From assembly GCA_038891615.1 (NCBI GenBank), contig JAWADY010000003.1, positions 32,001-96,000 of the forward strand: DNA of 64,000 bases. Reading direction: 5' to 3'. This document shows positions 49-64,000 of this stretch, one piece after another. The DNA comes from Candidatus Woesearchaeota archaeon (GTDB taxonomy: Archaea > Nanobdellota > Nanobdellia > Woesearchaeales > ARS49). The position numbers were made by a program, and so were the translations under genes. The notes under the pieces are model-generated. The model was not told where the DNA came from. It saw nothing but the letters and a program-made list of their open reading frames with translations, and searched no databases. Positions within the stretch are counted from its first letter, which is position 1. Each line of letters opens with the position of its first letter.

Positions 49-104
49 AGCTTAAAACGCTACTGAATTGATGGGAAAAAAGTTTTAGGTCAACAATAGC
101 AATC

Positions 105-112
105 TTTATAAA
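105..112 (+). promoter_or_regulatory. TATA box of the ribosomal protein operon
   Basis: TTTATAAA; with the ~30-nt spacing seen at leaderless genes in this window the TSS falls near 135. Confidence 0.7.
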
Positions 113-132
113 TCCCCTCATTGGTACGAATT

Positions 133-274
133 ATTGGCCTGAAAAGGAGTCTTTTCAGTACAGCGAAGTGAGCCGAGAGGTGAGGAAGTTTTTGGCCACT
201 GCTTCTAAAAGGCTCTTTTAGGCCCAATCAGTAGTTGACCCCAAAAGAGCTTTTTAAAGACTTTTGGGAAACAA
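133..274 (+). promoter_or_regulatory. Structured 5' leader of the rpl3 operon (candidate r-leader/RNA switch)
   Basis: Long hairpin 133-228, hairpin 240-268, and a mutually exclusive 14-bp helix 206-219/243-256. Confidence 0.6.
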
Positions 275-3952: not shown

Positions 3953-4641
3953 TAGAAAGAAAATTTGTTTCAGAAAGAGTGAAGGAGCACCACATACAAG
4001 AATTTATTTTTGAAACATTGAAGAATGTTGGTCACAGCCATACAAAGCTTGTGCGCACACCATTAGGTGAAAAAATAATCATCTATGCTTCAAAACCTGG
4101 ATTGGTTGTCGGAAAGAAAGGAGAAAACATAAAAAAGTTGACACTGGCCCTTAAGAAAAAGTTTGGGCTTGAAAATCCACAGATAGAACTAAGCGAGGTT
4201 ACAGACCCTGACGTAAATGCACAGATTGTTGCAGAAAGGATCGCTTCTTCTCTTGAACGTTACGGGGTTCAGAAGTTCAAGGCAATTGCACATAAGGCAA
4301 TGGAAATGGCGATGGCAGCTGGTGCGCTCGGAATAGAAATAAAGCTTTCAGGAAAACTCCCAAGCGCACGTGCTAGGTCTTGGAGGTTTTATTCTGGTTA
4401 TATGAAAAAATGTGGCAACGTTGCCATTGAGGCGACTCGCAAGGCTATGACAACTGCAAAACTGAAGTCAGGTGTGATTGGAATCAAGGTTTCCATAATT
4501 CCTCCACAGACTTATCTTCCCGACAGAGCAATTAAGCTAAAAGGTGTCGAGGAGAAAATGTCAGAAGATGTTAAACAAATACCTGCCCACAAAGATGATG
4601 AGGGCGGCAAAGAGAAGGAGGTGGAACAAAAGAATGAGTGA
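3949..4641 (+). CDS. rps3: 30S ribosomal protein S3 (uS3)
   Basis: RTPLG, KH motif PGLVVGKKG, GALGIEIKLSGK. Confidence 0.98.
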   Translation: MIERKFVSERVKEHHIQEFIFETLKNVGHSHTKLVRTPLGEKIIIYASKPGLVVGKKGENIKKLTLALKKKFGLENPQIELSEVTDPDVNAQIVAERIASSLERYGVQKFKAIAHKAMEMAMAAGALGIEIKLSGKLPSARARSWRFYSGYMKKCGNVAIEATRKAMTTAKLKSGVIGIKVSIIPPQTYLPDRAIKLKGVEEKMSEDVKQIPAHKDDEGGKEKEVEQKNE

Positions 4642-4840
4642 AACAAAATTCAGGGAACTAGCAGCTCTGAGCAATGAGGATTTGAGTGCAAAACTTGGTG
4701 AGCTGCGATACGAACTAATAAAGCTGTATGGCGAAGTTTCGACGAGGACTGTTCCTAAATCTCCTGCAAAGATCAGGCAGTCTAAAAGGGCAATTGCAAG
4801 GATAAAAACACTCCTTGCAAGGAGGGCAGCAAAGGAATGA
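4634..4840 (+). CDS. rpl29: 50S ribosomal protein L29 (uL29)
   Basis: ATG 4634; [14 protein letters not shown]; position after S3. Confidence 0.93.
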
Positions 4841-5145
4841 CCGAAGTCTGCCCAAACTGCGGCTTACCCAAGGATCTGTGTGTTTGCGAAGCCATTGCAA
4901 AGGAAACGCAAAAAATTGAAGTTCGCCTTGAAAAGAAAAAGTTTGGCAAAAACTGCACAGTCATCGATGGACTTGATCCAAAGGAGATTGACGTGAAAGA
5001 GCTAGCAAAGAAGCTTAAGGCAAAATTCGCGTGTGGAGGAACGGTTAAGGACAACAAGATTGAACTCCAGGGCGATCATAGGTCAAAGGTAAGAGAAGCA
5101 TTGGTTACTTTCGGGTTTCCACACGAAAGCATTGTTGTAAAATGA
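4837..5145 (+). CDS. sui1: Translation initiation factor SUI1/aIF1
   Basis: [29 protein letters not shown]. Confidence 0.96.
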
Positions 5146-13582: not shown

Positions 13583-14344
13583 ATGGTTTTGGGCTTTATT
13601 AACAAACTGTTCGATTTTCTTTTTGGGCCCCTGCTAAAGCTTTCACCTCTCTTGACAGTCCTTGTGATATCTTTTGTTATTTCGCTCCTAACCGTGCTTA
13701 TCTACAAGTGGACCACAAACCAACAGCTTATGAAACAACTCAAGGAAGAACTAAAAGCCTTTCAGCAACAAATTAGGCAACTCAAAGATCACCCAGAGGA
13801 AGCACTTGAGGTTCAGAAAAAAATGATGGAAACAAACATGAGATATATGAGACACTCATTCAAGCCAATGCTATTTACTTTCCTGCCAATAATCCTTCTT
13901 TTTGGCTGGATGAATGCCCATCTTGCTTATGAGCCAATCAAGCCTGGTCAGGAATTTTCTGTAGCACTTAATTTTGCAAAAGGAACGCGCGGAAGCCTTA
14001 ATGTCAGCTTGCCTGAAGGACTCACACTCCTAGAAAACAAAACAGTTGAGTTAGAGAGCGATACTACAATCCTTAGAATGAAGGCTGAGAAAGAGGGACG
14101 CTATCTTCTTGAGTTTGATATAGAAGGGAAAAGCTATACAAAAGAGCTTCTGGTATCTACGCAAAGAGTTTATGCAAAACCAATTGAATCCTATAGGACC
14201 CTTCCTCTAAAATCAATCAGAATAGGCAACCCCCCTGCAAAACTCTTGAATCTTGGCTTTGTCAGGCTCGGTTGGCTCTGGACTTATATACTTTTCTCAA
14301 TAACTTTTTCCATCCTTTTGAGAAAAGCTTTAAGGGTTTACTGA
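13583..14344 (+). CDS. DUF106 / EMC3-Get1-TMCO1 (Oxa1 superfamily) membrane protein with an inserted soluble domain
   Basis: TM, coiled coil, FKPMLFTFLPII TM, insert, GWLWTYILFS TM; canonical position after secY. Confidence 0.85.
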   Translation: MVLGFINKLFDFLFGPLLKLSPLLTVLVISFVISLLTVLIYKWTTNQQLMKQLKEELKAFQQQIRQLKDHPEEALEVQKKMMETNMRYMRHSFKPMLFTFLPIILLFGWMNAHLAYEPIKPGQEFSVALNFAKGTRGSLNVSLPEGLTLLENKTVELESDTTILRMKAEKEGRYLLEFDIEGKSYTKELLVSTQRVYAKPIESYRTLPLKSIRIGNPPAKLLNLGFVRLGWLWTYILFSITFSILLRKALRVY

Positions 14345-19974: not shown

Positions 19975-20069
19975 CGGGCCTGCGAGGATTTGAACCCCGG
20001 ATCTTCTGCTCCCTTTCGTCATTCAGACGATAGAAGGCAGCCGCTCTATCCAGACTGAGCTACAGGCCC
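19975..20069 (-). tRNA. tRNA-Arg(TCT) with 20-nt intron at 37/38 (20011-20030)
   Basis: GGGCCTG/CAGGCCC acceptor stem, TTCAAAT T-loop, CT-TCT-A anticodon loop interrupted by a relaxed BHB intron. Confidence 0.9.
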
Positions 20070-63778: not shown

Positions 63779-63878
63779 GAAGGCTGTTAAAGGTAATCTC
63801 TTTATAAAAATTTTGCTACTTCAGAATAGCATCTTGTTATAGAAAAATTTATAAGGAAAAGCGGATGAAAAATTAATA

Positions 63879-63987
63879 GGACGGCCATAGGGGCTGGGTT
63901 CTACCCGTTCCCATTCGAACACGGCAGTCAAACCAGCCTCCGTAGCTGAGTGTACTGCGTTACGCGGGAAATCAGCTAAGCTGTCCA
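63879..63987 (+). rRNA. rrf: 5S rRNA
   Basis: GGACGGC/GCTGTCC terminal helix, CCCGTTCCCATTCGAACACGGCAGTCAA, GTACTG, GGGAA; own TATA at 63848. Confidence 0.9.
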
Positions 63988-64000
63988 CTTTTACATCTTT

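Follow-up and report, generated by a model that had tools for sequence, protein, structure and literature searches.

Very few archaeal r-protein leaders are known, one of them being the Methanococcus L1 mRNA site, which lies in an r-protein mRNA as well and differs in ligand and structure from the element analysed here. In Escherichia coli, the S10 leader precedes the cluster homologous to the rpl3 operon, likewise as a long structured 5′ UTR, and is bound by uL4; one encoded protein controls the whole operon, rRNA competes for this protein, and a NusA-dependent Rho-independent terminator acts alongside translational control (PMC10931766, in the sections drawn on here). For archaea, Eckert and Weinberg (2020) presented four r-leader candidates among 20 new motifs; in the parts of PMC7247131 drawn on here, none of the four belongs to DPANN lineages, and for the rpl3 operon only an Archaeoglobi motif, rated borderline by the authors, is given. 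This Archaeoglobi L4 candidate likewise precedes rplC, rplD, rplW, rplB and further genes and was also proposed as a feedback site on position and covariation alone, the same text states. The archaeal S15 and eL15 candidates described there are likewise irregular stem-loops with conserved internal loops, with other ligands and structures, and some archaeal r-leaders imitate the rRNA site of their ligand. As criteria for an r-leader, Eckert and Weinberg name a consistent location upstream of r-protein genes together with covariation (PMC7247131, same sections). In our literature search, r-leaders were not connected to DPANN, Woesearchaeota or Nanoarchaeota by any paper.

Here, we analysed a window of 64,000 nt, by which we mean the whole stretch of DNA under study, at G000:C3:32001-96000 of an archaeal genome of 661 kb (97.9% complete), for which the nearest public rpl3 loci carry the titles Candidatus Woesearchaeota or Nanoarchaeota. 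The r-protein cluster in the window starts with rpl3 (uL3; 275-1264, + strand, ATG at 275; Pfam Ribosomal_L3, E 9.7e-64), and Pfam assignment, which covered the first nine cluster genes, gave the order L3, L4, L23, L2, S19, L22, S3, SUI1 and S17 from this ATG. From rpl3 to position 14344, approximately 24-25 co-directional ORFs were counted, with Pfam identity given for the first nine genes only. The SUI1 (aIF1-type) initiation factor gene (4837-5145, + strand; Pfam) lies inside the r-protein cluster, behind S3 and an ORF at 4544-4840 and ahead of S17.

On the 5′ side, the neighbouring gene for the DNA primase large subunit ends about 307 nt before the rpl3 ATG. Read from the sequence, an archaeal promoter occupies positions 100-112 (+ strand) and consists of a BRE-like AATC and the TATA box TTTATAAA (105-112); the rpl3 upstream regions of relatives carry a matching (A/G)CTTTATAAA box ahead of the motif described below. 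The archaeal TATA-to-start spacing is of a usual, known length, on the basis of which we predict the transcription start at G136 (+ strand), give or take a few nucleotides; the start near 135 put forward by the first-pass annotation is likewise a prediction from the TATA box only. With a start near G136, the helix P1 of the hairpin described below would form the very 5′ end of the mRNA, and the hairpin is presumably transcribed as 5′ UTR of rpl3. The spacing between the TATA box and the conserved GCCUG within P1 amounts to 32 nt in the window and, among 73 leaders, to 39 nt in the median (range 13-126 nt). Several relatives (L018, L021, L026, L027, L028, L033, L034) contain an extra hairpin between TATA box and motif, and their TATA-to-motif distance is approximately 70-126 nt versus 27-39 nt.

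Downstream of the promoter, a conserved leader motif spans positions 128-232 (+ strand), as found with the covariance model R2, in the minimum free energy (MFE) fold and by covariation. It forms an irregular hairpin, P1-P2-P3, which contains two of the four segments named in the first-pass annotation, A and B. P1 is built from the 5′ strand GGCCUGAA (136-143, + strand), which holds GCCUG, and its partner 217-224, while the P2 5′ strand GGAGUCUUUU (146-155, + strand) pairs with 207-216. Above P2, the conserved CAGUACA (156-162, + strand, with CAGUAC invariant in the alignment columns) is located opposite the conserved UUCU at 203-206, and the apical, lineage-variable part P3 (162-203, + strand) is present in both of the predicted states discussed below. 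The 3′ strand of the motif, equivalent to segment B (203-224, + strand), accordingly consists of UUCU, the P2 strand 207-216 and the P1 strand 217-224 in the MFE fold. In summary of the architecture common to the leaders, P1 (GCC/GGC) is followed by an internal loop with UGA(A/G)AAG, by P2, by the segment with CAGUAC opposite UUCU and by an apical P3, which varies in length and sequence among relatives. The MFE fold of 133-290 comprises the A:B hairpin plus a smaller C:D hairpin and has a free energy of -52.6 kcal/mol, compared to a shuffle mean of -38.7 kcal/mol (z -3.31; 0 of 200 shuffles fold as well). Its A:B pairs are 136-143/217-224, 146-155/207-216 and 157-158/205-206, continued upwards by 162-164/201-203, 167-170/197-200 and 172-179/189-196, so that the long A:B hairpin proposed earlier is recovered as the MFE fold. 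A BLAST-type search and a model search both found the leader as a single copy in the genome, R2 yielding one credible match (E 4.9e-5, after a shortened calibration as for all model E-values here) and a next match at E 3.7.

To judge conservation, we picked 30 rpl3 loci of relatives by L3 similarity alone (44-59% L3 identity). Nearly all of them show a typical leader pattern, AGCCUGA(A/G)AAG...CAGUACA...UUCU...AAGGCU, after the CTTTATAAA box. Counted by the shorter pattern GCCUG..CAGUA after this box, the motif occurs in 27 of the 30 loci, and R2 disclosed a variant motif in two more (L031 and L035), which brings the total to 29 of 29 assessable loci, the unassessable one (L032) having an upstream sequence of only 68 nt; R2 alone recovers 23 of the 30. 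All 71 distinct aligned leaders have GCCUG and CAGUAC without any change. The variant leaders found by R2 or R3 (L031, L035, L066, L072, L074) have CAGUAC replaced, e.g. by CAACAA, UAAUGU or CAGGAC, and may define which nucleotides are truly required.

The helices are conserved as structures. Leaders folded independently as single sequences adopt the architecture described above, and P1 is contained in the MFE of 68 out of 73 full leaders treated in this way. In an alignment of 57 sequences, 99.6% of the P1 cells are paired, all ten P2 pairs vary on both sides with 95.6% of cells paired, and the whole structure reaches 89.3% paired cells with changes on both sides in 19 of 22 pairs; these pair counts come from alignments fitted to the model structure and hence lean towards it, and an alignment of 15 sequences agrees (88.8% of cells paired). 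None of 500 shuffles matches the observed covariation score, and shifting the partner strand by one column lowers pairing to 54-58% over the 15- and 57-sequence alignments and to 56-58% in the latter. Wobble cells of the types G-U and U-G (104) exceed A-C and C-A cells (23), which fits an RNA read from the + strand. The MAFFT alignments A1 and A2 left the 3′ strand unaligned, with RNAalifold on A2 giving P1 only, and the first model, R1, was therefore seeded from three similar sequences (A3); R2 was rebuilt from 15 sequences and R3 followed. Antisense hairpin matches that arose with R1 were removed by source choice and E-value. Four genomes (G009, G024, G144, G155) are flagged as unpublished and no claim depends on these alone: G009 (L010) contributes one row to several alignments and counts, while G144 and G155 are two of the 64 R2-positive genomes reported below. 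Taken over all aligned leaders, only A and B of the four segments are conserved. The covariation across rpl3 leaders that the first-pass annotation had asked for is thus strong for A:B, but does not extend to C, D or the B:C helix, which are not conserved, and its more general proposal of a structured rpl3-operon leader holds, as A:B covaries and is always found between the CTTTATAAA box and rpl3 in relatives.

Within the order, R2 gave one match each in 64 of 151 sampled genomes when run with the stricter filters of Infernal, and all of 30 further loci taken from these matches have rpl3 downstream, approximately 30-250 nt away and in the same orientation. When 151 genomes were sampled across the class, five matches were obtained, all in genomes of the same order, and R3 was positive in 51 of 151 genomes of a phylum-labelled sample. 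In these R2 and R3 samples, no credible match was obtained in genomes of other orders; the sole match outside the order (G174; R3, E 0.002) was judged false, being remote from rpl3 and devoid of CAGUAC. Among 80 public rpl3 loci, 21 possess the motif, in every case upstream of rpl3 on the + strand, and it is missing from all 42 loci that bear Methanobacteri-, Methanothermococcus, Euryarchaeota, Bathyarchae- or Hermodarchaeota in their titles, a set counted by hand. No Rfam family matches the leader, neither the r-leader models suggested for comparison at the outset nor any other: Rfam 15 returned only chance-level matches to unrelated families for positions 1-1000 of the window at E values up to 10, nothing for the loci of ten relatives at E up to 1, and solely a 5S rRNA and three tRNAs for the whole window at gathering score. 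Hence, the hairpin is, as far as sequence comparison can tell, a conserved leader RNA without earlier description that is common to many Woesearchaeota-type archaea.

How does this leader compare with the known systems? It lies upstream of r-protein genes and on their strand at 29 of 29, 30 of 30 and 21 of 21 loci in the three sets above, and its structure is conserved with covariation, which makes it an r-leader candidate in the sense of Eckert and Weinberg. From the Archaeoglobi L4 candidate, as presented in the sections of PMC7247131 drawn on here, it differs in lineage and in that its covariation is strong while the former was borderline. To the S10 leader, the Woesearchaeota leader shows no likeness in sequence or structure, as judged by the lack of an Rfam match, and it has no hairpin-plus-U-run before the ATG and an archaeal promoter. 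It resembles riboswitch or attenuator architectures, as there is a conserved sensor-like hairpin followed by a lineage-specific downstream part and two exclusive folds were found here, yet its rod shape and r-protein context point to a protein ligand instead. In comparison with those archaeal r-leaders that imitate the rRNA site of their ligand, the Woesearchaeota motif shares only a word of 9-10 nt with 23S rRNA. This word, AGCCUGAAA, is met again in domain I of the 23S, in a conserved strand that is mostly unpaired and close to which UGAAAAG-like words are located; the coincidence could be due to chance. A search of the genome with R2 revealed no rRNA look-alike, all other matches having E values of at least 3.7 and lying outside the 23S gene.

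Taken together, we regard positions 136-224 as the local copy of a conserved cis-acting leader of the rpl3 operon in Woesearchaeota-type DPANN archaea and consider it probable, with a considerable margin of doubt, that it serves as a feedback site for an r-protein. A protein-binding leader best accommodates the rod shape, the loop nucleotides that never vary, the fixed position and the occurrence as a single copy. We thus infer that one of the r-proteins encoded downstream binds the hairpin and that an excess of free protein would reduce operon expression by autogenous feedback. If the bacterial S10 leader is taken as a guide, uL4 would be the favoured ligand, while uL3 is favoured as the product of the first gene; of the rules for ligand assignment given in the sections of PMC7247131 drawn on here, the 'prior' rule points to uL4 and the 'closest gene' rule to uL3. 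A kink-turn is defined by a 3-nt bulge followed by tandem sheared G-A pairs beside a Watson-Crick stem. Inspection of 57 sequences led us to reject a kink-turn/L7Ae site, as most leaders have AA after UGA on the 5′ side and AA before GGC on the 3′ side instead of GA/GA, and a loop-E reading of the internal loops was likewise rejected on inspection of the alignment. The step at which repression occurs probably depends on the lineage, since neither length nor sequence of the spacer before the ATG is constant: the motif-to-ATG distance ranges from about 10 to 190 nt, and no conserved second element was found between motif and ATG in the leaders compared. In this genome, stabilisation of the long hairpin by the protein would leave segment C available for D, and a weak Shine-Dalgarno(SD)-like GGGA, 6 nt before the ATG, would then be covered. 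A conserved expression platform, terminator or leader peptide was not found in the leaders. In 56 leaders, the predicted accessibility of the ribosome-binding site (RBS; -14 to +3) did not depend on the state of the hairpin (median difference -0.02), so a simple conserved translational occlusion is not visible. In two leaders (L014 and L024), approximately 190 nt of further structured sequence separate motif and ATG.

The first-pass annotation went further and described a switch of four segments, in which A:B plus C:D alternates with B:C. All complementarities it listed are indeed present in the window, at the coordinates given there. Segment C (235-256, + strand) is complementary to B (206-227); the C:D hairpin (240-268, + strand; 240-247 with 261-268), an exact 8-bp inverted repeat that also appears in the MFE fold, ends 6 nt before the ATG at 275 as claimed; and the B:C helix 206-219/243-256 comprises 14 contiguous pairs, one of them G-U, the complementarity extending over a 22-nt repeat (206-227/235-256) that is 82% complementary. 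The expected near-isoenergetic folds were obtained in silico for 133-295 (-52.6 kcal/mol unconstrained versus -51.7 kcal/mol with B:C forced), a difference of 0.9 kcal/mol, with B:C accounting for a share of approximately 0.09 of the ensemble. The additional pairing of 148-154 with 256-262 exists as well, but shares nucleotide 256 with the 14-bp B:C helix and cannot coexist with it; a state combining it with a 13-bp B:C helix has -46.5 kcal/mol. Following this scheme, a protein-stabilised A:B hairpin would let C:D hide the ribosome-binding region, while without protein B:C would free D. The D arm does cover G266-G268 of the weak SD-like GGGA (266-269), which may act as SD; GGAGG-like SDs precede several genes inside the operon, and the 16S rRNA ends in GGAUCACCUCCU at its 3′ side. 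The energetics speak for such a switch, too. The duplex of B with the downstream part has -18.6 kcal/mol compared to -11.0 ± 2.4 kcal/mol for shuffles of that part, only 5 of 1000 dinucleotide shuffles being as low, and opening the long hairpin in favour of the alternative costs 1.0 kcal/mol in the native sequence, but 7.2 kcal/mol on average once the downstream part is shuffled (z -3.7). The comparison with relatives argues against it. In the closest ones from a metagenome scan (L157 and L158, with L3 identity of 63% at best), the A strand, P2 and a portion of P3 are recognisable, but the sequence at the place of C and D is unrelated and the B:C complementarity is missing. C is found in this genome only. 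When B was tested against everything downstream in 61 leaders (30 dinucleotide shuffles each), the window gave z -3.7, but the median was +0.37 and only two of the 61 fell below -1.64, which is chance level, and one such case in 61 is unsurprising. Moreover, no more than 12 of 73 leaders have the two states within 2 kcal/mol of each other, mean unpaired probability of -14 to +3 in the window shifts only from 0.40 to 0.54 between the states, and the C:D hairpin is not followed by a U-run, which speaks against a terminator-like attenuator. C also resembles A at 17 of 22 positions, a score equalled by 39 of 500 shuffles. This likeness would be enough alone for pairing with B and gives a hint, and only a hint, that C is a decayed duplication of A. 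In L157 and L158, we considered an anti-SD pairing of GACUCU of B with AGAGUC at -16 to -11, which was discarded as not significant (z -1.4 and -1.3) and as opposite in logic to that of the window. The four-segment switch is not supported as the mechanism of the element: it is at most a feature of this genome and, given the 61 leaders, indistinguishable from chance. That the attenuator-like alternation works, at least in this genome, appears unlikely to us. As this case shows, a two-state fold can look convincing in a single genome without being what is conserved in an element.

A different alternation is suggested by what happens to segment A when B:C is forced, namely that it folds on itself into a local hairpin, H1, which was absent from the first-pass annotation. 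H1 (139-158, + strand) is an exact 8-bp inverted repeat, CUGAAAAG / CUUUUCAG (139-146 with 151-158, loop GAGU), and it shares the strand CUUUUC with P2, so that H1 and P2 are mutually exclusive. In a conserved bistable leader, H1 would form first during transcription and compete with P1/P2, and a ligand would pick the form. This is in line with 92.9% paired H1 cells in 71 leaders, with a loop length that varies from 3 to 8 nt as in RNA hairpins, and with five of the eight pairs changing on both sides (23 cells versus 6.9 ± 2.7 in shuffles, none of 500 reaching 23), but three of the eight never vary, G-U plus U-G cells outnumber A-C plus C-A cells only by 29 to 15, and the signal derives partly from A runs facing U runs. 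Furthermore, H1 is usually far less stable than the long hairpin, as forcing it costs 4.7 kcal/mol in the median and no more than 2 kcal/mol relative to the MFE in just 12 of 73 leaders, and it shrinks to 3 bp in L019, L020, L023, L025 and L078 although P2 is retained there. We hold a conserved bistable leader to be conceivable, but rather improbable. The hairpin might alternatively be a structural 5′ end without any feedback, shielding the long mRNA from 5′-end-dependent decay or marking a processing site. A start near G136 would indeed place it at the very 5′ terminus, and neither its rod shape nor the variable distance to the ATG requires coupling to the RBS; simple stabilisers, however, need no invariant loops, whereas all 71 aligned leaders agree in GCCUG and CAGUAC, and in many relatives the TATA box lies 39 to more than 70 nt upstream, so that the motif is not 5′-terminal there, which renders a purely structural role quite unlikely. 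At the DNA level, the highly conserved half-sites of a perfect 8-bp palindrome, CTGAAAAG-N-CTTTTCAG, which lies just after the TATA box at about +4 to +23 of the predicted start, could be bound by a dimeric transcription factor. We give hardly any credence to such an operator, since its spacer would vary from 3 to 8 nt, its distance to the TATA box would be anything between 13 and 126 nt, the palindrome strand covaries with the distal 3′ strand, and the wobble pairs show strand asymmetry. That rpl3 is preceded by an independent small RNA gene or by a protein-independent terminator appears very improbable, too: a U-run of at least five within 15 nt after P1 is present in 16 of 68 leaders, but missing in the window and in the other 52, and there is no room for a second promoter before rpl3, because TTTTTAAA at 251-258, although TATA-like, leaves too short a distance to the ATG at 275 to function for this gene. 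In AT-rich relatives (L033, L024, L048, L051, L053, L056, L059, L061 and others), the P1 3′ strand enters a U-run of 5-12 nt that faces an A-rich 5′ flank; this arrangement is terminator-like and might be an archaeal termination signal.

Some further RNA genes of the window deserve mention. At 19975-20069 (- strand), ARAGORN calls a 95-nt tRNA-Pyl(CUA), and Rfam confirms a tRNA (53 bits), with a poor anticodon stem as drawn; the gene possibly encodes an intron-bearing tRNA, perhaps Arg(UCU) with an intron of approximately 20 nt after position 37, and not an amber suppressor. A 5S rRNA gene is located at the far end of the window (63877-63989, + strand; Rfam, 70.2 bits). As the 23S gene resides on a different contig (G000:C1:6832-9771, minus strand), the genome has unlinked rRNA genes.

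We thus favour a protein-binding leader as the function of the hairpin. The motif fronts the largest r-protein cluster of uncultured organisms whose genomes are tiny and in which few other regulatory elements can be read from sequence. With its short length (approximately 85 nt), clearly invariant nucleotides and covarying helices, it is suited to binding tests with recombinant proteins, and it can be used to mark where the operon begins on its 5′ side in metagenome-assembled Woesearchaeota genomes. The balance between r-protein and rRNA synthesis in archaea could be studied on this example as well. We think it doubtful that H1 and P1/P2 are truly bistable, with an r-protein selecting the state and lineage-specific segments, such as C and D in this genome, reading it out. 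If this were true, however, no feedback switch would have been described earlier for the main r-protein operon of DPANN archaea, and the leader would control approximately 25 genes in a genome of 0.66 Mb.
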